Below are positions 6,561-30,946 of a stretch of 31,110 nucleotides of DNA, piece after piece (position 1 is the first letter of the stretch; each line of letters opens with the position of its first letter). Location of the stretch: IMG/VR virus record IMGVR_UViG_3300031451_000010, positions 1-31,110 of that record; one strand, 5' to 3'. The stretch comes from a virus. Taxonomy: Duplodnaviria > Caudoviricetes. The notes beneath the pieces are model-generated. The model did no database searches. It saw only the letters and a list, made by a program, of their open reading frames with translations, and had not been told where the DNA came from. The position numbers and the translations under genes were made by a program.

Positions 6561-7843
6561 ATTCCCTCTCCCCCATGCAGGGCATAACCCTCCATGATTT
6601 GTTCGTACATCTTCGGCAGCATCAGGCGCGGGGACTTGTCCGTGCCCGCCAGGTTACTCATAAAGTGCAGGAGGACGGCGGGCTGCCCCTGATAGCTGAG
6701 GCGCAGGCCCTTCGGCGTCATCTCGGAGTGAAACCACGTTTCCGGGGCGTCATTGTGCGAGAACAGATTGTACCGGCGGCTGAGGAAAACGGGGTCGGCG
6801 ACGGCGTGGATGGCGAGGGTCAGCAGGACTTCCTCGGCGAACCACGCAAAGCCGCCCTCGGCCCACAGCACGGCCAGCGGGTTCCACGCGGCGATCTGCC
6901 GGCCAACCGCCTCCATCGCCTCCCGGTGCCCCGCGACAAACCCTCCGTTGAACAGGTAAGGCCGGTCCACAAGGTCGGCGCGACCCGTCACTAGCTCCAC
7001 GTCCGAATCGGGCGCCCCCTGGCTCCTCACCGCCGCGCCGACCGTGTCGTTTGCCCCCCGGTCTTCCGCAGCCGAAGCCAGGAGCGGGTTTGCCGGGGCC
7101 AATGCCTGCACCCCGGCGACGGAGGAGCGCGACAGGTTTGCCACTGTCGCCCGCAGCCCTTCCAGGGAGCCGACCACGAGCGTGTCCAGGTCACAGAGGA
7201 TGAGGTACCGCGCGTCCGTGAAGCGCCAGGCCCCGTACAAAACGCCCTTAATGGACGCGCCGAACGGTGCCAATCCCCTGCCGGGAATGACGCGCACGTT
7301 CAGCGCCGTTAGCTCCTCCGCCGAAAAGCCCAAGTCCGGGGCGTCAATCGCAAACACCAGGAGCGTAGCATCCGGGACGCCGCCGAAGGCGCGCAGGGAG
7401 CGCAGGAACGTGGAAAACAGGTGCTCGTAGCCGGGCGTCAGGACGACCGCGAGGGCGAAGTCGGCGGGGACGGCTTCGGGAGGGCGTGCAAAATCGGTGA
7501 TAAAATCACTAGTAGGGCGTGCAAAAAGGGCGCGCTGCAAAGGGTCGGTGATGTAGTCGCCCTGTAGCGCGTCCGGGCCAGCCGCCTGCCGGACGCGCCG
7601 GAAGGACGCTTCAATCAAGTGTTTCGGGAAGCGGCGGATTTCGCGGAACACCTGCACCCGGCGCCAGTCGCGAGGGTCCGTCATTTCCCGCATTAGCGCA
7701 TTCAGGCGGTCAACGTCCAGTGCGTCTTCAGGCACTTCTTCAGGCACTTCTTCAGGCACTTCTTCAGGCACTTCTTCAGGCATCTCTTCAGGCATCTCTT
7801 CAGGCATCTCTTCAGGCATCTCTTCAGGCATCTCTTCAGACAT
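6557..7843 (-). CDS. GT-A fold glycosyltransferase (GT8-like) with an N-terminal EEMP/EEVP repeat
   Basis: ILCDLDTLVV (DxD), FNGGFV, RRYN, VLLHF. ATG 7843 overlaps the end of the upstream gene. Confidence 0.7.
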   Translation of the reverse strand: MSEEMPEEMPEEMPEEMPEEMPEEVPEEVPEEVPEEVPEDALDVDRLNALMREMTDPRDWRRVQVFREIRRFPKHLIEASFRRVRQAAGPDALQGDYITDPLQRALFARPTSDFITDFARPPEAVPADFALAVVLTPGYEHLFSTFLRSLRAFGGVPDATLLVFAIDAPDLGFSAEELTALNVRVIPGRGLAPFGASIKGVLYGAWRFTDARYLILCDLDTLVVGSLEGLRATVANLSRSSVAGVQALAPANPLLASAAEDRGANDTVGAAVRSQGAPDSDVELVTGRADLVDRPYLFNGGFVAGHREAMEAVGRQIAAWNPLAVLWAEGGFAWFAEEVLLTLAIHAVADPVFLSRRYNLFSHNDAPETWFHSEMTPKGLRLSYQGQPAVLLHFMSNLAGTDKSPRLMLPKMYEQIMEGYALHGGEGI

Positions 7844-7844
7844 C
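7725..7844. repeat. 12-bp tandem array x10 (TCTTCAGGCA[CT/TC])
   Basis: Four copies of TCTTCAGGCACT, five of TCTTCAGGCATC, one of TCTTCAGACATC; spans stop 7836 and start 7843. Confidence 0.95.
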
Positions 7845-8729
7845 TTGATCCTTCCACTCCGCGATCCGTTCCCGCGCTTCCCGCAGGGCGTCTTCCACCC
7901 AGCCTTTCGCCTTCTCGTGGTACTCCGGCGCGTACTCTTTGGACCCGGCATACGAGCGCGGGTGGTCTACCCAGTCATCGCAATGCCGCTCATAGTTGGT
8001 TTCGTGCCCGATGAGGCGCGGCGCGATGCCTGCCGCCCGCAGGCACAGGTTGAAGCAGGTTTCCGTGTCCGGCCATCCCTGCGTGGACCGGGGAACCCCG
8101 AACTGCGTGTGCGCGCGGTTGAAGTTCCAGGATGCGCCGATCCGATGAACTGTTGGGACATGGACCATCGTCGCCGTGTGGCTGACCATGCCCTCCCACA
8201 AGTCGGTCAGCCAGTCTCGCGGGGACATTTCGTAGCCGACGGCGGGGCACTGGGCGCTGCACATCGTCAAGAGGTATTTCAGATAGTCACGCCTCCGCAG
8301 AAAACAGTCTGTGTGCGTGTTGAACATATACTCCGTCTGGACAAGCGCGTAGGCGAGGTCCTGAGCGACCCCCACCGGCTCGGAGGAGTGCCGGTAGGCG
8401 TGGGCGCGCAGGCAGTGAATTTCCACGTCTTCCGCTTCGCAGTCCATCAGCCGCGCCAGGTGCTCCTCGCTGCTGCCGGTGTCCACGACGAGAATGTAGG
8501 GCCGCACGGTCTGAAGCCGAAGCAGCTCAATAACCGTCGGCACAGTTTCGGGCGTGTTGAGGTGCGCCATTGTCGCTGTGACCTGATACTCCCAGGGCTT
8601 TTTCGCGATGACGCCTTCCCACCGCTTGCCGGGAATGTCCGAGGGGGCGACAAGTCTGCGGCGCGCGGCGCGCGGAGACTCGGACGGCGGGAACAGGCCG
8701 GGTTTGGGCGAAACAGAGGCAATAAGCAA
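7836..8729 (-). CDS. Glycosyltransferase family 2-like protein
   Basis: LLRLQT..YILVVDTGS..TEYMFNTHTDCF (DxD-like). Confidence 0.75.
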   Translation of the reverse strand: MLIASVSPKPGLFPPSESPRAARRRLVAPSDIPGKRWEGVIAKKPWEYQVTATMAHLNTPETVPTVIELLRLQTVRPYILVVDTGSSEEHLARLMDCEAEDVEIHCLRAHAYRHSSEPVGVAQDLAYALVQTEYMFNTHTDCFLRRRDYLKYLLTMCSAQCPAVGYEMSPRDWLTDLWEGMVSHTATMVHVPTVHRIGASWNFNRAHTQFGVPRSTQGWPDTETCFNLCLRAAGIAPRLIGHETNYERHCDDWVDHPRSYAGSKEYAPEYHEKAKGWVEDALREARERIAEWKDQDV

Positions 8730-8791
8730 GGGAAACTCTTCCTGGAGGTTGTCCTGAAAACTCTGAATGCTGCCCTGGATTACTCCTGGGA

Positions 8792-10933
8792 CTAGGCTTG
8801 GCTGAGTAGCGTGATGTCCATTTCAGCGGCTATAATGCCCAGTGTGCTGTCCGCGTAGGCATACATCCGTACCTGGTCGCCTGCCGTCAGGCGAGTGGTG
8901 CGTATGTTGAGTGAGCCGTTGCGGGTGCTGGTCGTAACGAACCATTGAAAATGCGGCCCGTCCGCATTCGCTATGCCTGCTCCTTGCCCGTAACTTATGT
9001 TGGCGGGTAAGCCATCCGCAGGTCGCAACTTGGTAGTGATTTGATAGACACCCGTAACAGGGGCTGTATATATATTGGTAGAGGCATTGTAGTTATTACC
9101 AGTGTCAGAAACGACTGTAGGCAAGGTGATAATGTTAAAATTACCCCCTGGGATACTACCGTTCGTAGTGCTTAGTGTGACTACACAAGAGGCAGAAGCA
9201 GCGCCAAATACACGGCTCCATGCCGTCCCCGTGTCCCGATACCACTCGTTCGTGTCGGTCGCGACGTACAGCCGGTTTGCCGTGGACGCGGCGGGCCGGG
9301 CAGCCAGCGTGCCAAAGGAAACCGTCGTGCCGCCGCCGCTGGCGGAAGGGGTCGCCCAGGTCGCCACGCCTCCCGAAACGGTCAGCACCTGCCCCGCCGT
9401 GCCGAGGGCGAGACGCGCCGGCGCACCGCCCGCGCCGCCCGTAATCAAGTCGCCCGCCGCCGTCATGGGGTTTGTCAGGGCGGAAATGGCCGCAAGCGTG
9501 ACACTTGTAATCTGACCTTTGGCGTTGACGACGATGACCGGCACATGGGTGGCATCGCCGTAGGTCCCCGCCGCCGCGCCCGACGCGGGAAGGTCAGCGA
9601 CAGACATGGCGCGGAACGTGGGGGATGCTGCCGCACCCGAAGCAGGCCCGGCGAAAAACAGGTTCGGGTTTTGGGCCGCATAGGTGACGGTCAGCGTGCC
9701 GCTGCCGGTGACGGGGGAGTTCGTGACATTATAAACGGACGGCATGGACAGCCCGACGCTGGTGACGGTCCCGGAGCCGGAACCGGCGGTGCCGCTGCTG
9801 ATGGCGGTGATCTGCCCGCCGGACACGGTGAGGGTCGCGAGACTGTACGTCCCCGCCGCGACCCCGCTTCCCAGCCCGCTGGGACCTGCGGCCCCGTTTT
9901 GTCCTGCCGCACCCGTCGCTCCCGTTGAGCCTGCCGCACCAGTGGCCCCCGTCGGCCCGGCAGGGCCGGTTGCCCCAGGCGCGCCCGCCGGAATGCCGAA
10001 ATTGAACGTGGCCGCTGAGGGTGTGCCGCTATTGGACACGGTTGGCGAGGAACCAGGGGCAAGCGCGGACGCTGTTCCCGGCGCAACCGTCGCCGCCGCT
10101 CCTGCCGGGCCGGTCTGGCCTGTGGCCCCCGTCGGCCCGGCTGCCCCGGTGGGACCCGTGGCCCCTGCCGGGCCGGTCGCCCCGCGAATGTTTGACTGAA
10201 GCGTCCACGCCCCGCTGACCTTGCTATACACGTCTGCCGTGTCGGTCTTCAGGAACATGTCGCCGTTGTTGCCGGTCGCGGACACTGGAACCGTCGTGCC
10301 CGTCGTCCAAACGCTGCCCGCTGTTCCGGCGGCTCCTGTCGCACCCGAGGGGCCGGTCGGTCCCGTCGCCCCTGTCGCACCGATGGCCCCCTGCGAACCC
10401 GTCGCCCCTGCCGGGCCTGCTGCACCCTTCAGGTTGCCTTGCAGCGCCCATGCCCCGGATGCTTTCTTGTAATAGTCGCTCGTGGTCGTGTTGATGTCAA
10501 AGTCGCCGTCCGCGCCCAACGTGGAAGCGGGAACACCGGCGGCCACATAAATCTGCGAGCCTGCCGCCCCTGTTGCTCCCGTTGGGCCTGCCGCGCCGGT
10601 TGCCCCCGTTGGGCCTGCCGCGCCGGTTGCCCCGGCTGCGCCCTGCGGCACAGTGAAATTGAACACGGCGGCGGAAGTTGTCCCGCTGTTTGTGACGCTG
10701 GCCTGACTTCCCGGCGCGCCCGTCGTGGTCGCACCGACGCTAGCGGTCGCTGCGGCCCCGGTCGGACCCGTGGCCCCCGCCGGCCCCACAGGTCCTGCCC
10801 CGGTAATCAGCTTGTTGCCGGACGTTGTGCCGATGTAGAACTCTGCGGTGTCTTCGCAGATCGCCGGTTCCCCGTCTGCAAGTGTGGGTAAACTCGCCTT
10901 TGGCCCGCGCCGGATTTTGATTTGTGTTGACAT
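8792..10933 (-). CDS. Collagen-like tail fibre with a C-terminal C1q-like head
   Basis: N-terminal IKIRRG..LADGEP attachment motif; interrupted G-X-Y (GAT/GPT/GAA) runs; C-terminal NYNASTNIYTAPVTGVYQI...LTAGDQV. Confidence 0.8.
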   Translation of the reverse strand: MSTQIKIRRGPKASLPTLADGEPAICEDTAEFYIGTTSGNKLITGAGPVGPAGATGPTGAAATASVGATTTGAPGSQASVTNSGTTSAAVFNFTVPQGAAGATGAAGPTGATGAAGPTGATGAAGSQIYVAAGVPASTLGADGDFDINTTTSDYYKKASGAWALQGNLKGAAGPAGATGSQGAIGATGATGPTGPSGATGAAGTAGSVWTTGTTVPVSATGNNGDMFLKTDTADVYSKVSGAWTLQSNIRGATGPAGATGPTGAAGPTGATGQTGPAGAAATVAPGTASALAPGSSPTVSNSGTPSAATFNFGIPAGAPGATGPAGPTGATGAAGSTGATGAAGQNGAAGPSGLGSGVAAGTYSLATLTVSGGQITAISSGTAGSGSGTVTSVGLSMPSVYNVTNSPVTGSGTLTVTYAAQNPNLFFAGPASGAAASPTFRAMSVADLPASGAAAGTYGDATHVPVIVVNAKGQITSVTLAAISALTNPMTAAGDLITGGAGGAPARLALGTAGQVLTVSGGVATWATPSASGGGTTVSFGTLAARPAASTANRLYVATDTNEWYRDTGTAWSRVFGAASASCVVTLSTTNGSIPGGNFNIITLPTVVSDTGNNYNASTNIYTAPVTGVYQITTKLRPADGLPANISYGQGAGIANADGPHFQWFVTTSTRNGSLNIRTTRLTAGDQVRMYAYADSTLGIIAAEMDITLLSQA

Positions 10934-10960
10934 GGTTTGCTTTCCTAAGAATTCTACATC

Positions 10961-11062
10961 GAAACTTCCGGCCTAGAAACTTCCGGCCTAGAAACTTCCG
11001 GCCTAGAAACTTCCGGCCTAGAAACTTCCGGCCTAGAAACTTCCGGCCTAGAAACTTCCGGC
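10961..11062. repeat. 15-bp tandem array x6.8 (minus-strand unit GCCGGAAGTTTCTAG = A-G-S-F-stop)
   Basis: Perfect repeats of the last four codons plus TAG of the tail-tip gene. Confidence 0.95.
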
Positions 11063-13612
11063 TTCAATGGCGGGCTGTCCCGGCGCACCGGCAAAGTCGC
11101 CGCCGTCCACCGGGGGCTGTCCAGGCGCACCTGCAAAGTCGCCGCCGTCCAGCAGTGCCCGCAACGGGAAGCCGCCGATGCCGAAGGCCGCCGCGTCATT
11201 GTCCGCGAGGATCGGCCCGATCCACTGGGCCGCAATGCCGTCCGCGCCCGCCCCGGTCCACCCGCTGCCTTTCAGCATCAGCGACAGGTTGGCGACCACC
11301 GGCCCGTACCCGTACCCGCCCGATGTGGGCACATAGACCGTCCAGACGGCCCGGCCCACGTTCGTGCCGTTCGTGTTGCGCTCGACCACGAGGCCCGCGC
11401 TGTCGCTCAGGAGCGCCGCCGAGTAGAGCAAGTTGCTGAACACGCCGACCGCCGACCAGTCCGCCGCCAGTCGGTAGTTCTGCCCGGACTGCGGGAACGT
11501 GATCGCCTTCGTCGCCAGCGTCACAATCCGGTCCGCGACGCCCGACGCGAGGATTTGGTTGATTTCCTGCTGCTGCGTGTTGATTTCCTGCTGCTGCGTC
11601 CCTACCTGCTGCTCCACGGCAGTCGGTGTGCGCGGGGCAATCAGCACCGACTGGGCGGCGGCATCGGCCAGCGCCTGCAAGTTGGACACGCACTTGACCA
11701 GGACGGTCTGCCCCACCAGGATGTCCGGGACATTGACCCGCGCCAGAGCAGGCGTTGCGAGCGCAAACCTCTCGCCGGCGACGTGCCCCGTCATGGGCGA
11801 AGCGCGCACGCCTCGCCGCAGCCGGGACAGGGTGTAGCTTTGCGGCGCGGTCAGCGTGGCCGTCGCGAAGCCGAGGATTTCCCCGCCGAGGGCGGCGGCG
11901 TTGCCTCCGTACAGCACGTCGTTGTCGCTCGTGGAGCCAAGCTGCCCGTCCTGCCGCAAGGCCACGCCGACCGCGTTTGCCGTATCCCAGGCCGTCCGGT
12001 CCGTCCCGTTGCCCAGAGCCGCCCCCGTCATGCCGATCACCGAGCGGTCCAGTACCGTCCCACCCGAAACCCAGGTCTGCCCGTTGTCGGGAGAATAGAA
12101 GATGGCCGCGCCGCTCCACCCCGCCGCGCCTGTGGCCGCGACGTAAAAGCCGGGACGGAGCTGGTCCTGGTCGCGAAGCTCGGCCCCGCTCCACGCGAGA
12201 AAATCCGTGGGGACCATCACCAGCCCGGTGGCGCCGGTCGGGACCGGCGGCGCGCCCGGCACGGTCTGGACCAGCGCGTCCGCGTCATCGGCGACAGCGG
12301 AAAGCCGAAGCTCGCCGAACAGTCCCATCTCAATGGACACGATGCGTACTCGCCGGAGCACGCGGCCTGCCGGCGAAGCGGAAAAGTCGGTGGGCAGCAG
12401 GACCACATCGGCGGGGGCAAGGGCGGCGTAGCGCGGCGGCAGGGAAAACAAGCAGCTCTCGCGCTCGGTCCAGGCGGTGTCTAGCTCACGGGCGGCGATT
12501 TGGCGCGCCTCGGTCGCCGACAGCGACAGCGACAGCGTCAGAGCGAGGGCGTTCTGGACCGGGGCCGTCTGCCGCACGTCGCTTTGCGTGCCCTGCTCAT
12601 AGTCTTTGGACAGGTCGAAATACGTCAGGTCAATCCGGCCCGGCAGCTCCACATCCTGCGCGCGGCGGGCTTCAATCCGGGGCGCGTCGCCCCCGCTGCT
12701 TCCGCCGCCGGAAGCGGACGCCCCGCCAGAAATGGCCGCTCCCAAGTCGGCGGCGTCAATGGTGAGGACGGGCGCGCCGCCGCGCTTCACGGGACGCAGA
12801 AGACCGTCCACTTCCGTGAGGTCATACGCATAGGTGGACAGCACGGGCGCCAGCGCGTCCTGAGCGGTGACGCGGCTGCCGACGACGTAGCCTGAAACGG
12901 GGTCGGTTGCCCTGGATAGGTCCAGGTCGGCGGGCACAAGTCCCACGTCTAGGGCCAAATCGCCCGCGATGTTGCCGACCGTCACGGGGTCGCTTTCAAT
13001 CGTCGCCCGCCAGTTCGGAAGCCGGTTGGCGAAGTCTTTCAGCGGCAAGTCCTGCGCGACAAAATACACCCAGCCCCGGTAGGCAGGGGCCGCGCCTTCT
13101 GCGGCGAGGATCAGGGGGTCGGGCTGCTGGGCCTCGCTGCCGTCGTAGAACCGGAGGTGGTACGGGTCCACATTGTTGATCGCGTCGTAGATCACCACGT
13201 CGTCCGCCCACACCTTTTTGACCCGCAGGTTCCGCCCCGACCGGCACAAGCCGACCGCGCAGGAGGCGGTATAGGTATAAGTCGTCGTGGACGGCCCGCC
13301 GCCGCCCTTTCCGCCCTGTTTCTGGGTCTGGGAGTGCTCCATGAGGTGATTGCCGTGTTTGTCTTTGGCAACCCACAGGACGTTCCCGGCCACGCGCGTC
13401 CGCCCCCACACACGCGGGATGGCCGTGCCGTAGGACGACCCTGAAGCGTGCAGGTCGGAGAGCTTGCCGCTTTCCTGGTGGATGCCGGGGCGATTGGCGG
13501 CATCAATAATGCCGCCGAGGGTCGTCCCAATACTCCATCCGAGCCGGGCGCCGCCAGGTCCAAACGACGAGCCGATTGCCGCTCCAACGACACCTAACGC
13601 TATTGTGGCGAT
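11048..13612 (-). CDS. Tail-tip/host-specificity protein (RcGTA g15-like); probable ATC start
   Basis: The frame is open 67 codons upstream of the track start at 13411 (ATIALGVVGAAIG..SSYGTAIPRVWGRTRVAGNVLW). Also APAYRG..LKDFANRLPN and YTLSRLRRG; position after NlpC/P60. Confidence 0.8.
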   Translation of the reverse strand: MATIALGVVGAAIGSSFGPGGARLGWSIGTTLGGIIDAANRPGIHQESGKLSDLHASGSSYGTAIPRVWGRTRVAGNVLWVAKDKHGNHLMEHSQTQKQGGKGGGGPSTTTYTYTASCAVGLCRSGRNLRVKKVWADDVVIYDAINNVDPYHLRFYDGSEAQQPDPLILAAEGAAPAYRGWVYFVAQDLPLKDFANRLPNWRATIESDPVTVGNIAGDLALDVGLVPADLDLSRATDPVSGYVVGSRVTAQDALAPVLSTYAYDLTEVDGLLRPVKRGGAPVLTIDAADLGAAISGGASASGGGSSGGDAPRIEARRAQDVELPGRIDLTYFDLSKDYEQGTQSDVRQTAPVQNALALTLSLSLSATEARQIAARELDTAWTERESCLFSLPPRYAALAPADVVLLPTDFSASPAGRVLRRVRIVSIEMGLFGELRLSAVADDADALVQTVPGAPPVPTGATGLVMVPTDFLAWSGAELRDQDQLRPGFYVAATGAAGWSGAAIFYSPDNGQTWVSGGTVLDRSVIGMTGAALGNGTDRTAWDTANAVGVALRQDGQLGSTSDNDVLYGGNAAALGGEILGFATATLTAPQSYTLSRLRRGVRASPMTGHVAGERFALATPALARVNVPDILVGQTVLVKCVSNLQALADAAAQSVLIAPRTPTAVEQQVGTQQQEINTQQQEINQILASGVADRIVTLATKAITFPQSGQNYRLAADWSAVGVFSNLLYSAALLSDSAGLVVERNTNGTNVGRAVWTVYVPTSGGYGYGPVVANLSLMLKGSGWTGAGADGIAAQWIGPILADNDAAAFGIGGFPLRALLDGGDFAGAPGQPPVDGGDFAGAPGQPAIEAGSF

Positions 13613-14391
13613 GGCGATGTCCCCCGGACGTCATTGAAAGCGTCCTGGTCGAAGGCGTCCTGGTCGAAGGCGTCCTGGTCGAAGGCGTCCTGGTCGAAGG
13701 CGTCCTGGTCGAAGGCGTCCTGGTCGAAGGCGTCCTGGTCGAAGGCGTCCTGCCGGAAGCGGTAATGGCGCACGATGCGGGCGAACCAATCCGCCGTCAA
13801 GGGATGCTCCACGACAGAGCCGACCGACCGCCAGGCGTGAATGAGGCTCCAGGCGTTCTCCACGCCTGGACCCCCTTCATTTTCTTCCCTTTCTTCTATC
13901 CCTTCGGGCCGTGCCAGTATCCCGCAGTGGTTCGGCATGGTTTGGTCCTGGAAAACCAGGATGTCGCCTTCCTGCGGCTGTTCCAAAAGGGGCAAACACT
14001 CGCAATACCGGTTCAGGTGGCCGGTCAAGCGGTCAAACTCATGGCCGAGGGTGTAGTTGACATCGTCCTCCACGGGTACGCCCAGCCGCCGGGCGACCAC
14101 GATGAGCAGCCCGGCGCAGTCCAGCCCCACGCCGGGCAGACGGGCGGCGTGATGCCAGGGCGTGCCCAGGCATTCGCGCGCCGCCGCAACGATCTCCGCG
14201 CCTTCAACCTTCCGGCATTCAGTCCTGGCGGGCGCGGGGTCCGTGCCGCTATTCTCCGTGCCGCTATTCTCCGTGCCGCTATTCTCCGTGCCGCTATTCT
14301 CCGTGCCGCTATTCTCCGTGCCGCTATTCTCCGTGCCGCTATTCTCCGTGCCGCTATTCTCCGTGCCGCTATTCTCCGTGCCGCTATTCAA
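13600..14391 (-). CDS. NlpC/P60 tail-tip peptidase with repeat-expanded termini
   Basis: IVAAARECLGTPW..GLDCAGL..GDILVF..HCGI..LIHAW. TTG start; (NSGTE)n N-terminus and (QDAFD)n C-terminus. Confidence 0.85.
   Translation of the reverse strand: MNSGTENSGTENSGTENSGTENSGTENSGTENSGTENSGTENSGTENSGTDPAPARTECRKVEGAEIVAAARECLGTPWHHAARLPGVGLDCAGLLIVVARRLGVPVEDDVNYTLGHEFDRLTGHLNRYCECLPLLEQPQEGDILVFQDQTMPNHCGILARPEGIEEREENEGGPGVENAWSLIHAWRSVGSVVEHPLTADWFARIVRHYRFRQDAFDQDAFDQDAFDQDAFDQDAFDQDAFDQDAFDQDAFNDVRGTSPSPQ
13640..13752. repeat. 15-bp tandem array x7.5 (GCGTCCTGGTCGAAG; QDAFD)
   Basis: Perfect repeats right after HYRFR, where the NlpC domain ends. Confidence 0.95.
14240..14389. repeat. 15-bp tandem array x10 (TCCGTGCCGCTATTC; NSGTE)
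   Basis: Perfect repeats; the first unit in transcription order contains the TAG (14384-14386) of the upstream gene. Confidence 0.95.
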
Positions 14392-14614: not shown

Positions 14615-14628
14615 GTTTGCTGCCTTTC

Positions 14629-15658: not shown

Positions 15659-15703
15659 AGCAGGTTCCTACAGCAAAAGTTAAAGCAAGGACCAAAGGGA
15701 AAA

Positions 15704-22242: not shown

Positions 22243-22248
22243 GGTGAA

Positions 22249-22338: not shown

Positions 22339-22375
22339 CAGCGCTCAAAAGAGGCAAGAGCCGGCAGCGACCCGG

Positions 22376-22926: not shown

Positions 22927-22973
22927 GATGTTTTTCTTTCAGTCAGTTTTCAGGCGTTCAGTTCAGCCCCAGA

Positions 22974-23309: not shown

Positions 23310-23331
23310 CGCGGATACCCCTCACCACCGC

Positions 23332-23369
23332 CTAAAGGGTGGAAATCTTGCTAAAGGGTGGAAATCTTG
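23332..23369. repeat. 19-bp duplication ending exactly at the tail tube stop
   Basis: CTAAAGGGTGGAAATCTTG x2. Confidence 0.9.
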
Positions 23370-24814
23370 TTGATCAGACTGAACTGCCCCAGGCCGAAGT
23401 TCTCATCGTCGGCGATGTCAAAGGTGAACGTGTTGCCGTACACGTCGTTTTTGTTGCCGGGGTCCGGGGTCATCACGCGGACGGGGAGTTGCGCCTTGAA
23501 CTGGTGGTAGATGTTGGGCGTCCCGGCCTCGATCATCGGGCCGGTCGCCTTCAGCCCCAGATGCACCACCTGGTTGTCGTACAGCCGGGCCATGTAGAGG
23601 TCGGCTTCCGTGCCCTCCTCCGTCGTGATCTTCGCGCCGAAGTCGGGCGCAAGCTCCACAGTGTCGTCGTAAGAGGAGGTCGCGTCGGTGACGTGGAACA
23701 CGGGCTTCCACAGGGACAGAAGTCGGATTTCGCCGTCCAGGGTTTTGTTCAGCTGGTTAAAGGTCACGCCGCCATCCGTGGACAGCCACACGCTGAGGGC
23801 GACCGGGCTGACGGCGAGCGGGGGGAGGACGGGGAGCGGGGTCGTCATCGTGATGTTCCGCTGGAGCCTCGTGCCGAATATCTGCCCGTCCATGCTGGCG
23901 TCTTCGGGCGTCCAGGTCAGGTGGCAGCCGCCGACAAAGCCCCAGCCGAACTTCTCCGCCCCGCGCGCGCTGCCCTGCTCGAAGGTCAGGGTGGACTGCA
24001 CGCCCGGCTGGACCGGCGAGGGCTTCCACAGCCGCTGCCGCCCGGCGACGCCCACGGTCGTGGGGGCCACGTCCCCGAACAGCGAGGAAAGGACTAGGTA
24101 GAGCAGGTTGAAGTCCATCGCGCCGGTGAAGGACGCTTCCGTGTGCTCGTGGCCGACCTGCCCGTCCGTGTAGGCTTTGGAACCGCTATGGCGCACACCC
24201 TTTTTGGGGATGATCTGCTTGGGCTGCATCTCCATGTTTTTCAGGCGGATGGTGGCGGGCACGAGCAGGCCCGGCGTGGTTTCCCGCCCGACCTGGATGC
24301 CCTGGTATACGAAAGCGCGTGCCATGCTGTAAATCCCCCCTTGCGAAAGTGTCGCCGCAGCGACGTTGGACGGCGAACTTTCCGCTACGTCCGGGCCTGA
24401 AGACGCGGTGCCCAGCGCGGTCACGATGTATTGGTAGCGGACGTCGTTCTCGGTCGCGTAGTCATCGAAGCTCAGTGCGGACGTTTCCGCCATCCGCACG
24501 AAGGCCCCGATGTCCGGGTTCAGCCGCCACACCCGGTAGCTCGCCGCGCAGGACACCGGCGTCCAGGACAGGCGGATGTGGTTCACGCCCGTGCCGCCCG
24601 TCGCGGTCAGCGCCGTCGGGTCGATCATCGCGACGGCGGCGGTCGCCGAGGGCGCGCTGTCCTGCCCGTTTTCGGTCGCGGTGACGTAGTAGTAGACGAT
24701 CCGGCCAGACGGCTCGCCGGTCCCGGCATAGGCCGGTGTCGTCAGCCCGCTCACCACCAGCGAGAACGGTCCGCCGGGCTGCGAGGCGCGGTACAGGCTG
24801 TATGTTCGCGCCAC
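23351..24814 (-). CDS. Major tail tube protein with N-terminal half-FN3 plus FN3; internal in-frame start at 24325
   Basis: GGAGGAGG RBS with GTG 24814; FN3 W/Y pattern; then GGGGGG RBS with ATG 24325 (MARAFVYQGIQVGRETTPG, tube-like). Position between tail terminator and chaperone. Confidence 0.75.
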   Translation of the reverse strand: MARTYSLYRASQPGGPFSLVVSGLTTPAYAGTGEPSGRIVYYYVTATENGQDSAPSATAAVAMIDPTALTATGGTGVNHIRLSWTPVSCAASYRVWRLNPDIGAFVRMAETSALSFDDYATENDVRYQYIVTALGTASSGPDVAESSPSNVAAATLSQGGIYSMARAFVYQGIQVGRETTPGLLVPATIRLKNMEMQPKQIIPKKGVRHSGSKAYTDGQVGHEHTEASFTGAMDFNLLYLVLSSLFGDVAPTTVGVAGRQRLWKPSPVQPGVQSTLTFEQGSARGAEKFGWGFVGGCHLTWTPEDASMDGQIFGTRLQRNITMTTPLPVLPPLAVSPVALSVWLSTDGGVTFNQLNKTLDGEIRLLSLWKPVFHVTDATSSYDDTVELAPDFGAKITTEEGTEADLYMARLYDNQVVHLGLKATGPMIEAGTPNIYHQFKAQLPVRVMTPDPGNKNDVYGNTFTFDIADDENFGLGQFSLINKISTL

Positions 24815-24842
24815 CGCGCCTCCTCCGGGCCTTCAGTCCAGG

Positions 24843-24932
24843 GTCTTCAGTCCTGCGTGTGTCTTCAGTCCTGCGTGTGTCTTCAGTCCTGCGTGTGTCT
24901 TCAGTCCTGCGTGTGTCTTCAGTCCTGCGTGT
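24843..24932. repeat. 18-bp tandem array x5 (GTCTTCAGTCCTGCGTGT)
   Basis: Perfect repeats of T-Q-D-stop; partial copy at 24831-24839. Confidence 0.95.
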
Positions 24933-25371
24933 AGGCGAAGACGGAATACATGCCGCCCTGGTGGACGTGCTCCACGCCGTCCGCCTCGTCCATGTATTGC
25001 ACCGGGTCCGTGCGGGACACGCCGATCACGGTGGGGTCGTCCCGGTCCTGGGCCTGCTGCAAGAGGGCGTCTATGCGGTCGGCGATCCGCCCGACGGCGG
25101 TGAAGTCCTCGCCGACGTCAATCCCCTTGACCTGGTACAGAAGCCGGGTGCACACGCGCGCCCCGCCGGTCCCCCGCCGGTCCCGCCCGCTGTGGAAGGC
25201 GAAGACCACGCAGGGGAAGCCGCCGTCCTGGGGCACGCGCATCTCGTAAATGCGGCCCGCCACCAGGCTGTCCAGCCCCCGGTACGCCCGCCCCCGCCCG
25301 TCCACGCCGTCCGGGTCGTGGGCGAGCCGCTCGTAAATCCACGCCGCGACCGGGTTGAGTTCGCTCGCCAT
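24919..25371 (-). CDS. Tail terminator-like protein
   Basis: LVAGRIY..PQDGGFPCVVF..IADRIDALL; position before the tube; ATG 25371 directly after the upstream stop. Confidence 0.7.
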   Translation of the reverse strand: MASELNPVAAWIYERLAHDPDGVDGRGRAYRGLDSLVAGRIYEMRVPQDGGFPCVVFAFHSGRDRRGTGGARVCTRLLYQVKGIDVGEDFTAVGRIADRIDALLQQAQDRDDPTVIGVSRTDPVQYMDEADGVEHVHQGGMYSVFAYTQD

Positions 25372-25373
25372 CG

Positions 25374-25808
25374 CTAGTCCTGGGCCGCCTGCGCGACCGC
25401 CTGCCGCATGGCGGCCTCGTAGTCTTCCGCGTGCGCGGCGGCGGCGGGCTGCAAGAACGGCTGCGGGGCCTGCCGCGCCGTCCCCCGCTCCACCCACAGA
25501 CCGTACCGGACGCCGACTACGACCAAGGCGAGAAGCGCGTGGGCTGCGTCCGGTTCTACCGGCTCAAATAGCTCCGCCTTCGGGTCGGCGGCAGAAGCGT
25601 CTTCCCCCGCCTGCCCCGCGCCGCCGTGACCCTCCGCGACGGTGTAAATGGAGGCGCGCATCGCTCCGGTGTCCACGGCGGCCCGGAGTTTGGCGTCGGC
25701 TTCCACGTCCAGGGCGGTCTTTCGCACGACTTGCGCGGCGCGCTCTTTGACGCTCCCGGTCACCCGTCCTAAATTGTTATGGAGCACCTTCGTGCTGAGT
25801 GTCAGCAT
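25374..25808 (-). CDS. HK97 gp10-like tail completion protein
   Basis: AKLRAAVDTGAMRASI..YGLWVERGT..PQPFLQPA. Confidence 0.85.
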   Translation of the reverse strand: MLTLSTKVLHNNLGRVTGSVKERAAQVVRKTALDVEADAKLRAAVDTGAMRASIYTVAEGHGGAGQAGEDASAADPKAELFEPVEPDAAHALLALVVVGVRYGLWVERGTARQAPQPFLQPAAAAHAEDYEAAMRQAVAQAAQD

Positions 25809-25837
25809 CAGAAACCTCTCCGGCTACTGGCCGGACC

Positions 25838-26218
25838 TTACTGCTGGCCGATTTTGATAACGACCGCGCTCAGGCAGAGCTGGGTCGTGCGCGGCAGGGG
25901 CGTCTCCACCTCGTAAGCGCCGCCGTAGTCGCCCCCCGTGATCTGCACCCGGTCTTTGGCGGTGAGGGCCGCGCCGTGGGGCAGGTGGAGCCGGAAGGCG
26001 GCGCTTGACTGCAACTGGTCGCCCTGCACCTGCTCCGGGCGGGGCCGGTACGGAGCAAGACGGGCCGGATAGGTCGGGCCGGGCGGGTAGGTGACGATTT
26101 CGCCGCCGCGCCCGTTGCTCGTCTTGGTATAGACCAGGACCTGCGCCGTGTCCACAAGGGACTCTTCCATCGCCGCCCGCGCGTCCGCGAGTTCCTGCGC
26201 GTCCATCGGCTCAAACAT
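25838..26218 (-). CDS. Head closure (stopper) protein
   Basis: 126 aa; SNGRGG..LHLPHGAALTAKDRVQI..YEV; synteny. Confidence 0.7.
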   Translation of the reverse strand: MFEPMDAQELADARAAMEESLVDTAQVLVYTKTSNGRGGEIVTYPPGPTYPARLAPYRPRPEQVQGDQLQSSAAFRLHLPHGAALTAKDRVQITGGDYGGAYEVETPLPRTTQLCLSAVVIKIGQQ

Positions 26219-26237
26219 GGCCTAAAACCCTGCCCTT

Positions 26238-26639
26238 TTAAGCCGTGTTGTCCGTGTCCGAGACGGCGACAGGGATCGGCAGGAGCGGGAAGGCGGCGCG
26301 GGCCGGGGCCGGGGCCGTCACCGAGCCGGACAGCTTGTTTTTGTATTGGAGCGCCATTTTGCCGCACATCTCAAAGACCTGGGAGCGGGACAGCCTTTGG
26401 TCCGCCTCCTGCATGTCGTAATGGCCCGCGCAGCCCGCCTGTTTCTGTTCCCAGCCCCGGTACAGGGCGTAGTTCAGGTTCCATGTCGGCTCCCAGAGAG
26501 GGTCCGAGGGCGCGCGCCCCCAGTGGTCGGCGCGGCGGGCGGAGGCGACCAGCATCTCCACCTCGTCGCCGCTGAGTTTTGGGTACTGGTCGGCTTTGAC
26601 GAGCAGCCGGATACGCGCGCGGGCCTCATCTTCGGTCAT
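26238..26639 (-). CDS. Head-tail adaptor-like protein
   Basis: ARIRLL..LSGDEVEMLV..QRLSRSQ; synteny. Confidence 0.65.
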   Translation of the reverse strand: MTEDEARARIRLLVKADQYPKLSGDEVEMLVASARRADHWGRAPSDPLWEPTWNLNYALYRGWEQKQAGCAGHYDMQEADQRLSRSQVFEMCGKMALQYKNKLSGSVTAPAPARAAFPLLPIPVAVSDTDNTA

Positions 26640-26664
26640 GCACCTGGCCTACTTCTGAAGGAAA

Positions 26665-27075
26665 CTAGCGCCCGCGCAGGGCGGCTTTGGCCTGTTCCGG
26701 GTTGGTTTCCGGCGTCGGCAAGCCCTGCGTCACGCCGCTGACGGTGTAGTTCTCGCGGGGCGTCGGGTCGGGGATCGTGCCCCGAAACCCCACCTGGTCC
26801 TCAGCGTCCTTTTTTGCCTGCACCTGGGCCGCGCCCGCGTCCTTTTTCGCGTCCGGCAACTTGCCGTCCGGCGCGGAGGTCTGGGCGCTCGGCTCGGCGA
26901 GAGTGGGCGGCTTCGCGGCGACTTCCTCCGGCTTGGGCGGCAGCGCGGCGGCAGGTGTTGCTGCTGTAGGCGCTGCTGCTGTAGGCGCTGCTGCTATAGG
27001 TATTGCTGCTTCAGGTGCTTTCGTATCAGGTGTTGTTTTGGCGTCGGTGCTCGTCGGGGTCGTCTGATCGGCCAT
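26665..27075 (-). CDS. Pro/Ala-rich hypothetical head-associated protein
   Basis: AAGGAG RBS; degenerate AAAPT repeats; C-terminal GFRGTIPDPTPRENYTV. Confidence 0.65.
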   Translation of the reverse strand: MADQTTPTSTDAKTTPDTKAPEAAIPIAAAPTAAAPTAATPAAALPPKPEEVAAKPPTLAEPSAQTSAPDGKLPDAKKDAGAAQVQAKKDAEDQVGFRGTIPDPTPRENYTVSGVTQGLPTPETNPEQAKAALRGR

Positions 27076-27232
27076 AGTTTCTCTCCTTGTTCAAAATCGG
27101 CTCCTGTTTTGCCCGAAGCCGAAGAAACGCGGCGGGTGAACCGCTGAGAAGTCTTGCCAGCGCCGCCTGAGTGAGCGCGCGGTTCGCTTCCTGCTGCATG
27201 TAGGCCAGAGCGCGGGCGTCTTCTTCGGTCAT
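27026..27232 (-). CDS. Small hypothetical protein
   Basis: GAGG RBS; N-terminus MTEEDARA resembles the adaptor's MTEDEARA; overlaps the next gene by 50 nt. Confidence 0.45.
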   Translation of the reverse strand: MTEEDARALAYMQQEANRALTQAALARLLSGSPAAFLRLRAKQEPILNKERNYGRSDDPDEHRRQNNT

Positions 27233-27271
27233 GGACGGACCTCTCAGGCGTACAGACTAGGGCGACGCAGG

Positions 27272-28207
27272 TTAGGGCGACTGGAGCACCGCAAACGGAT
27301 AGCGGTTGGCCTCGGTCTGCTGCTGGTAGTTGATGGTGTTGGCGACCTGGAAGGCGATGCGGAACGTCAGACGGATGGCGATCATGTCCTGCTGGGCGAG
27401 GTTATAGATGATCGCGCCCGTGCCGTCCTGGATGACCGCCTGGTCCAACTTTTTCCAGGTCATGTCCTTGCGCGTGCCGAGGATGCCCTGGCTGAAGTCG
27501 CCCGCGATGACTTCCGCCGCGCCCAGGCCCGCAGGCCACAGTCCGGGCATGGCATAATTCAGCGGCGAGCCTTCAATGGTGTTGGTGTTGATGTCCAGCA
27601 GCTTCTGGCCCATCGTGTCACGCGCGCCGCGCAGGTAGCGTTTGTAGGTATTGGGGAGCACAAAGCCGTTGACGGCGTAGCCGGCGGTTTCCACCTTAGC
27701 CAGCAATTGATTGAAATCCTCGGCGATGCCGCCCTGGGCCTGCGGGGCCGTGCCGCGTGTCACGGTGTTGCCGTGCGCCTTCGCAGCGACGGCGATGGCA
27801 TCGGGCCACGAGGTCGGCTTGCCCGCGCCGAAGAAGATGGCGGCGTCCAGGGCGCGGCCCACGGCTTCCTCGATGAGCGGCTGCGCGGCCCCCCAGAGGT
27901 CGAAGGTCATGTCCTCGTAGACGCTCTCGGCGACGGGCATGATGACGGCCATCTCCTCGACCATGAGGTACTTGTTGCTCCACGCCAGCTCGGTCGTCTG
28001 CTTCTGCCCGGTGTCGCCGTTGACGAAGTAGGCGGTGGGCAGGGCCGAGAGGACGGGCATCCGCGTGACATTCGTGGACATCGGAATTTTTTTGAACAGG
28101 GACAGGGACGCACACATCGTCGTCAGGTTGGTCAGGATCGCGTCGGAGACTTCCTCCGGGATCGTGGCCTGTACGTTTGTGCGCGATGTCAGATTGTTAA
28201 AAGCCAT
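27272..28207 (-). CDS. Major capsid protein (HK97 fold)
   Basis: GGAG RBS with ATG 28207 (MAFNNLTSR); IPEEVS..AYFVNGDTG..GDFS..NLAQQDMIAIR. Confidence 0.9.
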   Translation of the reverse strand: MAFNNLTSRTNVQATIPEEVSDAILTNLTTMCASLSLFKKIPMSTNVTRMPVLSALPTAYFVNGDTGQKQTTELAWSNKYLMVEEMAVIMPVAESVYEDMTFDLWGAAQPLIEEAVGRALDAAIFFGAGKPTSWPDAIAVAAKAHGNTVTRGTAPQAQGGIAEDFNQLLAKVETAGYAVNGFVLPNTYKRYLRGARDTMGQKLLDINTNTIEGSPLNYAMPGLWPAGLGAAEVIAGDFSQGILGTRKDMTWKKLDQAVIQDGTGAIIYNLAQQDMIAIRLTFRIAFQVANTINYQQQTEANRYPFAVLQSP

Positions 28208-28254
28208 TTTGGTTCTCCGTAAAATAGATGAACAGGGGCTGGGCGGAGAACCAA

Positions 28255-28352
28255 ACAAGGGCTTTTCATGCCCCACAAGGGCTTTTCATGCCCCACAAGG
28301 GCTTTTCATGCCCCACAAGGGCTTTTCATGCCCCACAAGGGCTTTTCATGCC
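28255..28352. repeat. 20-bp tandem array x4.9 (ACAAGGGCTTTTCATGCCCC)
   Basis: Perfect intergenic repeats starting 5 nt after the scaffold stop. Confidence 0.95.
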
Positions 28353-28357
28353 TCTGT

Positions 28358-28912
28358 CTAGCTCCGCAGCAGCGTGTTCATATCGGCGCGAGCGCCCTGG
28401 GTGTTGCGGGCCGCCCCCGCGTCTCCGCCAAGCGCCCCCGCGCCGAACAAGGCGGGGTAGCTCTTTTGGAGCTGCGTCAGTGCCGCTTTCAGGGCGGCGG
28501 GGTCCGGCTCGCCCGTTTTCGGGTCGGACGGGACCAGGGCCTCGCTGATCTTGGCGACGATCAAATCCGGGTACAGCGCGTTCGTTTCCCCCACGGCGCG
28601 GGTCAACGATTTTTCCCGCGCGTCTTGCAGACGGGCCGCCTTCAGCGTGTTATTTTCGTCTTCCAACGCCTTCAGCCGGTCGGCGGCGCGCTGGGCTTCG
28701 GTCTTGTTCGCTTCCTCAAACTGGGTCACGCGGCCCTCGGCGGCAGTCGCGCGGACGCGGTGCTGGGCAGCTTCCTGCCGAAGTTTTTGCACGTATTCGA
28801 GGCTGAAGGTCTCCGGCTCCGGGCCGGGCGACTGTGCCGCTGCCTCGGCTCCGGTTCCTCCGGCGGCCTCGGCGGGCTGGGGTGCGGCGACTGGCACGAC
28901 TTCTTCTGACAT
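28358..28912 (-). CDS. Capsid scaffolding protein
   Basis: YVQKLRQEAAQHR coiled coil..YPALFG..DMNTLLRS; directly upstream of the major capsid gene. Confidence 0.8.
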   Translation of the reverse strand: MSEEVVPVAAPQPAEAAGGTGAEAAAQSPGPEPETFSLEYVQKLRQEAAQHRVRATAAEGRVTQFEEANKTEAQRAADRLKALEDENNTLKAARLQDAREKSLTRAVGETNALYPDLIVAKISEALVPSDPKTGEPDPAALKAALTQLQKSYPALFGAGALGGDAGAARNTQGARADMNTLLRS

Positions 28913-28983
28913 CGGGAAAAGTGCCTCCTGGACACAGCGGGGAAAGGGATTCAAATCGCGTGGCTTGAAAGCTCGGGGCTTTG

Positions 28984-29044
28984 AAAACGAAAAAGACGCC
29001 CCGCGACAGTCGGCCCTTGCGGGTGGCCTGTCGCGAAGCGTCTT
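28984..29044 (-). terminator. Intrinsic terminator in the leader of late promoter P1
   Basis: AAGACGCTTCGCGACAG pairs with CTGTCGCGGGGCGTCTT, followed by TTTCGTTTT. Confidence 0.75.
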
Positions 29045-29125
29045 GTCTATGTTCCCCTGGAATGATGCACCTGGCATCAGTGACTAGGGGCTAGTCAATC
29101 TTCGTGAAAATGGCAATGTGTGGAT

Positions 29126-29154
29126 AGTATACAGCAGGCGGACGAGATTGTCAA
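29126..29154 (-). promoter_or_regulatory. Late promoter P1
   Basis: TTGACA, 17 nt spacer, TATACT; 25/29 identical to P2. The -35 is duplicated with a 15-bp period (29146-29174). Confidence 0.75.
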
Positions 29155-29240
29155 GCCCGTGATTGTCAAGCCCGCGCTTTATTTTTGTTTAAGGCGGCTG
29201 TCGCCTGTTTCCCGCGTCGCGGGAAGACTACCCGCGCGCC

Positions 29241-30302
29241 CTATTTTTTACCCTTCGCCGTCGCCAGATTGTTCTCAAACCGCACCCGCCCCCACTTGGG
29301 ATCGTCGGCCTCCCCTACCAGCGAGGCCAGCGCGATTTCCCCCGCCTTCCACGCCGCGAACTTGGCCGGGCCGAGGATGGATTTTTGCACGTCCTCAGAT
29401 TGCGAGAGGAACCACTCGCCGCCCGTCTGAGCCGGTTTCACAACCACATCGGGAACGTCAAAATCAGACATATCAAAGCCGAGCAAAAGTCTATCCTCGG
29501 CCCAGGTCGCCGTTACGGGCCGGGGTGAGCATCGGCAGCGCGGGTGGGACGCGAACTCCTCGTCCAGCGGATGCACCGTGCCGTCCATCATCAAACATAG
29601 GATACAGGTGTTCGGGCCGGGGTCGCACGTCCAGCACCACGCCTGGGCCACGTCCGCGTTCGCCCGGTAGATTTCCAGGCTCGCCTCCCGGTAGGCGGTC
29701 ATCGAAGTCGTGCGGGCGATGGTCAGCGCGCGGGACAGGGTTCCCCCCAGCACGGGGGCGATCTGCCGGGCGACCTGGGCCGGGCCGTTTCCCAGCGCGT
29801 TGTTTTGCAGCAGGGCGGCACGGACGCGCGCGCCCGCGTCTTCCGGCAAAGCGTCCAGCATGCCGCGCAGGGGAGTACCAGGTGCCAGCGAGACGGTCAG
29901 CTTTTGGAAGGCGACAGGGTGCAGCCGGTTAAAGGTCGTGAGCGCATTTGGCGGGGCGGGGCCGCGCCCTTCGGTGAGGTAGAAGCGCGCGTGGGTCTCG
30001 GCCAGCCGCAGGCGGGCGTGGGCAGCGTCGGCGATCACCGGCCCGGCGGCCTCGGCGAAGGCGGCGAGGCGGGCCTGCACCCCGGCCAGCAGCCGGGGCA
30101 GCCGCTCCCCCGCGTACAGCCAGCCCGCTGTCCATGCGCCCGTGCGGGCGGCCTCCTCCGCCTGCCGCTGCAAGTCGTCCAGCGCGCCCGAAATGTCGTC
30201 CGTGGCTTTGCGGAAGAGGCCCAGGAGGGCGAGCGCGAGGGCGGCGTCGGCGGCGAGCAGGGCGGCGCGGAACGCGGCTTCCGGGGCGACGGGCTTAGGC
30301 AT
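29241..30302 (-). CDS. Minor head morphogenesis protein (SPP1 gp7/Mu F family)
   Basis: RALTIARTT..WCW..TCILCLMMDG..HPRCRCS; start in a TGATG overlap. Confidence 0.85.
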   Translation of the reverse strand: MPKPVAPEAAFRAALLAADAALALALLGLFRKATDDISGALDDLQRQAEEAARTGAWTAGWLYAGERLPRLLAGVQARLAAFAEAAGPVIADAAHARLRLAETHARFYLTEGRGPAPPNALTTFNRLHPVAFQKLTVSLAPGTPLRGMLDALPEDAGARVRAALLQNNALGNGPAQVARQIAPVLGGTLSRALTIARTTSMTAYREASLEIYRANADVAQAWCWTCDPGPNTCILCLMMDGTVHPLDEEFASHPRCRCSPRPVTATWAEDRLLLGFDMSDFDVPDVVVKPAQTGGEWFLSQSEDVQKSILGPAKFAAWKAGEIALASLVGEADDPKWGRVRFENNLATAKGKK

Positions 30303-30532
30303 CAGCCAAAACTCCCGGCCAGAACCTTCGGCACGACGCAAACGACGCCCGTATACTTTTTGAAGGAAAGCGTGACGGTCCCGGCGGCAGAGGGCGCGTC
30401 GGCCAGGTGGGTCAACGTGTAGACGACACCCAACTCCTCGTCGGCCAGCAGCGCGTGTTCTATGGGCCGTCCGTCGCAGAAGACAACGTACTGCCGGGTG
30501 CATTCGTCGTGATCGGGGAAGAAGTAGACCAT
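30302..30532 (-). CDS. Small hypothetical protein
   Basis: 76 aa, translationally coupled at both ends. Confidence 0.6.
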   Translation of the reverse strand: MVYFFPDHDECTRQYVVFCDGRPIEHALLADEELGVVYTLTHLADAPSAAGTVTLSFKKYTGVVCVVPKVLAGSFG

Positions 30533-30583
30533 CGGTTAGTAGACCATCGGTTAGTAGACCATCGGTTAGTAGACCATCGGTTA
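30523..30583. repeat. 15-bp tandem array x4 (minus-strand unit TAA CCG ATG GTC TAC)
   Basis: Perfect repeats spanning stop 30581 and start 30532. Confidence 0.95.
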
Positions 30584-30823
30584 CTCGGGGGAGCCGAAAC
30601 AAGAAAAATAGTGGAAAACGGAAAGCCCACATCCGCAGGACGGACAATCAACACGCGCTTCCCGTCCGCCGCTGGAGCGGAGGCTTTCCTCCACCACCTT
30701 GTCCCCCGCTTCCAGCTGCACAATCGCGCTGCACTGGCGGCACACAATGCGTTTCCCGACCCACCACGGCGGGCGCGGCTTTTGTCGTTCCTCTTTGCTC
30801 ATGCCGGCAATAATAATCTTCAT
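30581..30823 (-). CDS. Small zinc-ribbon protein (MKIIIAG)
   Basis: CRQC...CPSC; AAGGA RBS before ATG 30823. Confidence 0.6.
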   Translation of the reverse strand: MKIIIAGMSKEERQKPRPPWWVGKRIVCRQCSAIVQLEAGDKVVEESLRSSGGREARVDCPSCGCGLSVFHYFSCFGSPE

Positions 30824-30856
30824 GGCGTTGATCCTTAGCGCGGGCAGTAAATCATT

Positions 30857-30946
30857 CTCAAAATCTTTTTGCTCAAAATCTTTTTGCTCAAAATCTTTTT
30901 GCTCAAAATCTTTTTGCTCAAAATCTTTTTGCTCAAAATCTTTTTG
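30857..30946. repeat. 15-bp tandem array x6 (CTCAAAATCTTTTTG)
   Basis: Perfect repeats, probably non-coding. Confidence 0.95.

Follow-up and report, generated by a model that had tools for sequence, protein, structure and literature searches.

The window analysed here, i.e. the whole of the viral record IMGVR_UViG_3300031451_000010 (a single viral contig of 31,110 bases and 65% GC), is a fragment of a tailed, probably temperate phage, the host of which, judged at family level by homology rather than by a direct link, is probably a Capsulimonadaceae bacterium. Spread over this window are ten arrays of short tandem repeats, which are young, locus-unique and variable in copy number between strains. 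We consider it likely, if by no means assured, that these arrays are locally born minisatellites and not a coded system, i.e. that they reflect a duplication habit of the host lineage, which is raised in its phages and filtered by selection.

All ten arrays reported by the initial annotation, together with a 19-bp duplication, were recovered both by Tandem Repeats Finder and by an exact repeat scan (Table 1), but the genome-wide reach given to them there holds for this 31-kb fragment only. Each array has its own, locally derived unit, as had been claimed, and no word of more than 7 consecutive bases is common to any two of the ten units. The window counts 19 perfect duplications in all (units of 11-30 bp), 11 of which have at least three copies (the 7725 array being counted twice); fifth-order Markov simulations (n=30) averaged 0.1 perfect duplications, never exceeded 1 and produced no array of three copies or more. 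A CRISPR array was rejected, since the units are head-to-tail without spacers. In the 7725 array, the first unit includes both the TGA that ends the upstream gene and the start ATG of the following one, the repeat being translated into an (EEMP/EEVP)n N-terminal tail. Starting at a TTG (14391), the 14240 array can be read in the NlpC/P60 frame, as (ENSGT)n, that at 30523 consists of three-codon mini open reading frames (ORFs), after which the last ATG starts the next gene, each unit at 28255 folds as a small hairpin, and decayed copies continue downstream of the 10961 array. The NlpC/P60 protein (13600-14391) would have a pentapeptide repeat at either end, (ENSGT)10 and (QDAFD)7.

Table 1. Tandem repeats and other features of the window, with positions counted from its first letter
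Feature	Position	Strand	Basis or matches
In-frame 21-bp duplication in GH5 gene	197..244	-	
Array, 12 bp x10.1, two ordered variants	7725..7845	-	
Array, 15 bp x6.8, containing TAG of Rcc01698-like tail protein gene	10961..11062	-	
Array, 15 bp x7.5, inside NlpC/P60 gene C-terminus, (QDAFD)n	13640..13752	-	
Array, 15 bp x10, containing TAG of small gene	14240..14389	-	
Array, 16 bp x9.1, containing TAG-ATG at baseplate hub gene end	14629..14773	-	
Array, 16 bp x5.6, containing TAG of ORF upstream of tape measure gene	22249..22338	-	
Decayed stop-spanning duplication, 13/16 alike	22945..22990	-	
Perfect 19-bp duplication (x2) ending in TAG of putative tail tube gene	23332..23369	-	
Array, 18 bp x5, containing TGA of tail terminator gene	24843..24932	-	
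Second decayed stop-spanning duplication, 12/15 alike, at capsid gene stop	27272		
Array, 20 bp x4.9, intergenic, scaffold/major capsid gap	28255..28352	-	
Array, 15 bp x4.1, each unit TAA..ATG	30523..30583	-	
Array, AT-rich, 15 bp x6, intergenic, directly after T-arm-like hairpin and insertion sequence (IS) end	30857..30946	-	
Further perfect in-frame two-copy duplications	2039, 10578, 11558, 17123, 26959		
Siphophage-type structural operon, from Mu F-like head protein to collagen-like fibre (Mu F-like head protein, scaffold, capsid, neck, terminator, putative tail tube, tape measure; DUF2460, baseplate hub, NlpC/P60, Rcc01698-like tail protein, collagen-like fibre)	8792..30303	-	Pfam/PHROGs
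Major capsid gene	27272-28207	-	
Tape measure gene	16312-22242	-	
GH5-domain gene, main host clue	123..2018	-	Named homologues in Capsulimonas / Capsulimonadaceae
IS200/IS605-family TnpB gene	4248..5555	+	76-90% DNA matches in host-family genomes
IS200/IS605-type end	30985-31082	-	83-91% alike to multi-copy host-family sequences

The arrays were checked against contigs of three public runs from three studies (X1, X2 and X3) over the stretch 10900-30899, outside of which the 7725 array lies. All nine arrays in that stretch interrupt contigs of X1 (a run that may be the source sample), which stop 30 bases into the array, and eight of the nine do so in X2, the 14240 array being ambiguous, while both runs span the 19-bp duplication at 23332 without a gap. 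Since contigs that break at arrays imply about three or more copies there, these data argue for multiple copies where the initial annotation had envisaged that spanning reads might reveal single ones, and they confirm that the arrays are real, exact copy numbers not being fixed by contigs. The chance that assembly created them is next to negligible: the longest arrays, at 145-150 bp, approach the length of a read and their exact copy numbers lie beyond the contigs, but the contigs of all three runs break at arrays and one array holds two ordered variants.

Run X3 represents a strain ~95% identical to the window, the array states of which were inferred from the contig pieces listed. Breaks in its contigs fall at 10961, 13640 and 24843 and, from the count of letters, at 14240 (both arrays of the NlpC/P60 gene thereby appearing to be retained); the contigs run through 14629 (~2 copies), 22249 and 28255, and the 23332 duplication is probably absent. 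Altogether, four of the eight checkable repeat sites appear to be missing from this strain. The shared arrays would be triplet (15, 15, 15 and 18 bp) and the short or absent ones non-triplet (16, 16, 19 and 20 bp), an apparent persistence of the former that concerns four sites vs four. Among the 40 differences listed between X3 and the window, 28 are synonymous and 12 non-synonymous (13 of 487 residues differ in the tail tube protein), and this mostly synonymous divergence indicates that the window genes are functional and under purifying selection. Indels of 12 or 15 bases also occur within X3 genes (12371, 12728, 25553 and 29463), that at 12371 resembling adjacent sequence.

As for position, the stop codons that the initial annotation had seen in the first unit of six arrays and of the 23332 duplication are all there, except that the arrays concerned are seven, which makes eight stop-containing repeats (7725, 10961, 14240, 14629, 22249, 23332, 24843 and 30523). 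Of the other arrays, that at 28255 begins 5 nt after a TAG and that at 13640 lies inside a gene (~12 codons ahead of the NlpC/P60 stop); the tRNA-like end given for a further one is treated below. With arrays collapsed, eight of the ten duplications outside gene interiors contain a stop (null 0.25, p=4e-4), and eight of nine under a stricter null from which long gaps and start-only sites are removed (null 0.52, p=0.024), i.e. the enrichment around stops is real but survives stricter nulls only weakly. Most gene ends carry no array. The proposal that translated arrays have units divisible by 3 is borne out, since all those with at least three copies (7725, 13640 and 14240) are triplet, as are seven of the eight gene-interior duplications, the sole non-triplet perfect repeat inside a window gene being a GC-only 11-mer (x2.2) at 25161.

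The same class of duplication is found in a second, unrelated phage group of three species (G102; L285/L286; L287/L288), with 65 perfect duplications per 100 kb in G102, 56 in L285, 62 in L286, 71 in L287 and 76 in L288, next to 61 in the window. G102, which came from an alignment scan with GH5 and has 13 duplications in 20.1 kb, possesses a head module unlike that of the window, together with a Bet-like annealase, a replication initiator and DnaB. DNA identity between species of this group is 70-84%, and units differ at an orthologous gene end (a 22-mer in L286, a 14-mer in L287). Separate assemblies share arrays (L285 with L286, L287 with L288), which again speaks against an assembly artefact, and L287 and L288, 99.86% alike, differ by one gap, a 21-mer present at 5.9 vs 4.9 copies. 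Elsewhere such repeats are rare: no perfect duplication was found in 250,035 bases from 24 distant relatives of the second group or in 60 kb of a second GH5-bearing phage (G103), other phage-gene loci gave 8 in 1,171,282 bases (<1 per 100 kb), and 80 capsid-relative loci (49-63% alike; 985,046 bases) held no perfect array of three copies. Scanning viral contigs with the tail tube gave no close relative of the window phage, and scans with the baseplate hub gave at least two distant loci each in metagenomes and in genomes. A capsid relative is present in only 1 of 39 genomes of the presumed host family, in a frameshifted prophage without arrays (in G107); the corresponding locus, L149 (G107:C1:4655001-4675000), is a decayed prophage that keeps the gene order of the window and has no tandem duplications, in a genome with Ku and exonuclease VII. 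The occurrence of the class in unrelated phages and, as described next, in host chromosomes, the different units at orthologous sites, the many array-free gene ends and the four repeat sites apparently missing from X3 argue against the phage-specific programme that had been put forward.

The host sample, 2,483,764 bases in total, was drawn from 39 family genomes and from G076 and G087 (41 in all) and contains 128 perfect duplications. An unbiased first pass gave 28 in 673,945 bases (4.2 per 100 kb), later sampling having favoured rich genomes; the figure for individual genomes lies between 0 and 16 per 100 kb. The commonest host units are 15 and 18 bp long, the same lengths as in the phages, and 40 of 43 duplications inside called genes are triplet. 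The initial annotation had held that an equal density in the host would make the arrays a host trait: the kind is the same, but the density is 4- to 15-fold lower, and counted by the definition used for the archaeal Borg elements there are 321 arrays per Mb in the window, 249 in G102 and 10 in the host family.

Position classes were compared between these chromosomes and four pooled phage species, as events per 100,000 positions. In the phages, stops have 18 events in 1357 positions (1326), short gaps 5 in 1051 (476), start-only sites 2 in 1233 (162), long gaps 7 events (153) and gene interiors 20 events (27). In the host chromosomes, the figures are 40.7 for stop-spanning sites (12 events), 38.7 for short gaps (8 events), 15.3 for starts and 2.4 for gene interiors. 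Cruder host tests of stops conflict (p=7e-4, biased upward, vs p=0.76, biased downward), and it is the 40.7 vs 38.7 comparison that uses the matched method.

Among repair genes, several candidates were discarded. Ku is found in 3 of 39 family genomes, and those show no duplications; MutS (36/39), the 5' nuclease domain of Pol I (35/39) and RecJ (37/39) do not sort rich from poor genomes; and ExoI, found in 0/39, cannot discriminate. Exonuclease VII is found in 4 of the 39 and in G087: these five genomes have no duplication in 342,228 bases, the 36 without it 128 in 2,141,536, absence not being proven where genomes are incomplete. This pattern suggests a possible role of exonuclease VII loss in duplication. 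In E. coli, single-strand exonucleases are reported to limit initial duplications (PMC1428787), and removing ExoVII to improve Red-mediated uptake of single-stranded DNA ends (PMC3434165), as far as the portions of these papers drawn on here go.

The units themselves are AT-rich and CG-poor against nearby DNA, and the AT bias holds after adjustment for position class (p=3e-4); on the coding strand of the window, A makes up 0.26 vs 0.19, and AAA/TTT occurs 39 times vs 15 expected in the four phages. Of the phage arrays, 21 of 52 have no overhang, i.e. no partial end copy (~50% being expected without microhomology), and the others have longer partial or decayed copies, mostly downstream. No breakpoint motif was seen by eye among 47 zero-overhang junctions, and no RNA fold is shared (z from -4.7 to +2.8). 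RecT/Bet proteins are encoded in G102 and in G142, a provirus; in all, RecT was found in two of the five second-group fragments. Reverse transcriptase (RT), PolA and PolB are found in none of those five fragments (16-46% complete), a polymerase or RT in none of 31 ORFs scanned in the window, itself a fragment, and an RT template RNA, such as repeat synthesis by a DRT, retron or DGR would call for, was not found in the window by Rfam, host RTs not having been searched.

On the origin that we favour, (i) host-lineage replication or repair would double an 11-23-bp stretch, with a preference for AT-rich stretches and often without flanking microhomology, (ii) the doubled unit, the copy number of which does vary, would gain and lose copies by slippage or unequal annealing, (iii) the rate or retention would be about tenfold higher in temperate phages of this host, plausibly owing to the host polymerase acting with a phage Bet/RecT-type single-strand annealase in a host devoid of exonucleases I and VII, and (iv) selection evidently removes frameshifts, what survives being triplet repeats at protein ends that tolerate them, together with units of any length that lie in a gap or span a stop. 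Units that span a stop would be tolerated because translation of the upstream protein terminates in the first copy, and the last copy gives the following gene its original context back; where genes are tightly packed in an operon, such a frame filter would leave arrays on gene 3' ends. Of the two origins offered by the initial annotation, a duplication mechanism linked to gene ends and slippage filtered by selection, it is filtered error-prone copying that these data support. A more specific version, in which host exonuclease VII loss and a phage Bet/RecT protein together make Borg-type repeats, seeded preferentially at translation stops, appears doubtful.

Several observations weigh against filtered copying by the host lineage. 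Phage stops exceed all non-interior sites (odds ratio 6.2, p=6e-7) and also short gaps (odds ratio 2.6, p=0.03), both after AT adjustment, and the excess is replicated in the second phage group alone (11/23, null 0.148, p=1.8e-4); this 2.6-6-fold stop excess goes beyond what a filter alone would give. The window holds no replication genes, and the annealase invoked is one known from the second phage group. The evidence linking exonuclease VII comes from five genomes and is confounded with ancestry, since four negative genomes that share the Pol I length signature of the positives have only 2 duplications in 120,000 bases, so that ancestry may explain the pattern. Lastly, the tenfold step may in part be due to a true host that lies outside the sample and duplicates at a high rate; in genomes assembled from short reads, arrays are also lost where contigs end, and host gene ends were derived from the gene caller of the analysis itself.

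The stop excess is what gives weight to the idea, which we regard as unlikely, that gene ends themselves provoke duplication: in heavily transcribed phage operons, the fork would be stalled at points of ribosome release by naked RNA, R-loops or backtracked RNA polymerase, and its restart would copy 11-23 bases twice. The counts in the four phages for stops, start-only sites and short gaps agree with this, as do the independent units at orthologous stops and a trace of older decayed duplications at array-free stops (5 of 22 above the 90th control percentile), which is not significant (p=0.06). Against it, stops are no richer than short gaps in host chromosomes, and of the 53 phage duplications 20 are gene-interior and 12 fall in gaps; a filter would likewise predict few events at starts, and 24 events underlie the short-gap comparison. 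A purely host trait, in which the true host would be a high-rate lineage whose prophages share its density, appears improbable, since even the richest genomes in the sample, at 12-16 per 100 kb, remain 4-5-fold below the five phage records and, by the Borg definition, hosts have 10 arrays per Mb against 321 in the window and 249 in G102; the spread between host genomes, the several host arrays at contig ends (which make counts low) and the provirus nature of G142 nevertheless fit it.

There is even less to recommend the view of the arrays as selected tuning devices for translational coupling, readthrough protection or disordered virion-protein tails, which we hold to be very improbable. Two arrays (14629 and 30523) do form stop-start relays, the arrays shared with X3 appear to be the triplet ones, and a function has been proposed for Borg repeats in the part of that account relied on here (PMC9879509). 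Yet no motif or fold is common to the arrays, units are not conserved across related species, the change from 9 to 2 copies at 14629 breaks frame, and the related decayed prophage in G107 has no arrays. As to copy number acting as a dial on coupling or virion stoichiometry, which had been suggested, there is no evidence for it.

The gene content of the window, from Pfam (31 ORFs) and PHROGs (30 ORFs) scans, is that of a minus-strand structural operon of a long-tailed (siphophage-type) phage, with an HK97-type head and siphophage tail genes; no portal, terminase or replication gene is found within the 31,110 bases. Both contig ends carry IS200/IS605-type ends. Upstream of the Mu F-like gene (30302-31110) there are two small genes and an IS end, without portal or terminase, and on this basis the head module may be rearranged. 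Concerning the host, close GH5 members are present in three genomes, all of one phylum, the TnpB region has matches in 29 of the 39 genomes of the family to which G054 belongs, and 29 window genes are reproduced by a gene caller trained on host-family chromosomes; none of the 39 family genomes gave a decisive assignment by DNA match or spacer. The unusual GH5-domain family (window 123-2018; L091, L092, L093, L094) is common to Capsulimonadaceae-type chromosomes and several phages, and in G102 its gene sits among head genes. The putative tail tube protein (23351-24814) has ~160 extra N-terminal residues and one distant homologue only (29%) in a protein search. The tail protein gene shows no ATG, GTG or TTG near its apparent start (13600-13630), and its conserved N-terminus seemingly begins from an ATC that is preceded by a GGGGGA motif and overlaps the end of the NlpC/P60 gene at its stop. 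Two near-consensus sigma-70 promoters on the minus strand, at 29126-29174 (TTGACA-17-TATACT, with a duplicated -35 box, 15 bp x1.9) and 5788-5815 (TTGACA-17-TATAAT), share 25 of 28 bases, which suggests co-regulated late promoters.

The tRNA-like 3' end that had been placed before the 30857 array, and with it a tRNA or attachment-site remnant, was rejected, as it is a short hairpin (30950-30969) that follows the IS200/IS605-type end. At 30950-31020, ARAGORN finds no tRNA and Rfam none at its gathering thresholds (weak matches of 24 bits only), the 24-nt motif has no match in any of the 39 family genomes at up to two mismatches, and the hairpin motif is present in two viral contigs, without a tRNA. 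IS200/IS605-type ends in the host-family genomes G121 and G120 (L273, L274) also bear 12- and 18-bp tandem duplications.

Bacterial minisatellites, or variable-number tandem repeats, have locus-specific units of 10-25 bp and copy numbers that vary between strains, as here, but usually occupy few loci per megabase, whereas the window has one array per 3 kb of structural operon. No earlier account of such arrays in bacterial phages or Armatimonadota was found in the literature, by titles and abstract beginnings and leaving supplements aside. E. coli duplications and lambda Red offer another likeness, in that 3' single-strand ends and exonucleases govern initial duplications (PMC1428787; PMC3434165), with the difference that the portions of those papers used here deal either with kilobase-scale amplification involving microhomology or with oligonucleotides that had been added, 11-23-bp duplications not being shown in them. 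The exonuclease findings might carry over to these phages.

The closest parallel is with Borgs, to which the initial annotation had already compared the arrays. By the Borg pattern, the window has 10 perfect arrays (at least 50 nt and at least three units) in 31,110 bases, with locus-unique units, triplets within genes, A-enrichment and rapid gain and loss between close relatives (L287 vs L288 and, by inference, strain X3), all of which support the resemblance. To judge from the Borg material used here (excerpts of PMC9879509; further sources on the repeats are bioRxiv 10.1101/2023.08.02.551345 and 10.64898/2026.05.22.727314), Borgs and mini-Borgs of Methanoperedens share with the window perfect, unique, fast-changing units that are triplet in genes and biased to A/AT, many of them intergenic or with a first unit in a gene end (already noted for Borgs), with partial flanking copies and an element far denser than its host. 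There are differences as well. Borgs are linear archaeal elements with terminal inverted repeats and a Methanoperedens host, whereas these are bacterial tailed phages; that the window is itself a Borg or mini-Borg was rejected on its HK97-type head, siphophage tail genes, 65% GC and Capsulimonas-type homologues. The window is ~6-fold denser than Borgs (321 vs ~55 arrays per Mb, PMC9879509 Table 1; 3.2% vs 0.62% of bases). Borg repeats are virtually absent from the host chromosome, as against 10 per Mb, by the same definition, in the family that probably includes the host here. Borgs have their own PolB9, none being found in the five fragments of the second phage group, and for Borg repeats an uncharacterised polymerase, as well as a part in regulation, has been suggested (PMC9879509).

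Neither the formation nor a function of Borg repeats is settled. The Borg pattern, some six times denser, is now seen in two unrelated bacterial phage groups, in sampled fragments without a polymerase, and both the graded host level and a candidate repair-gene correlate favour a general origin by mutation plus filter. Such phages fragment in short-read assemblies, which is a warning in its own right. If exonuclease VII loss and a Bet/RecT protein did prove to act together, a dedicated polymerase such as PolB9 would not be needed, and these phages would offer a bacterial and in-principle culturable counterpart of Borg repeats.

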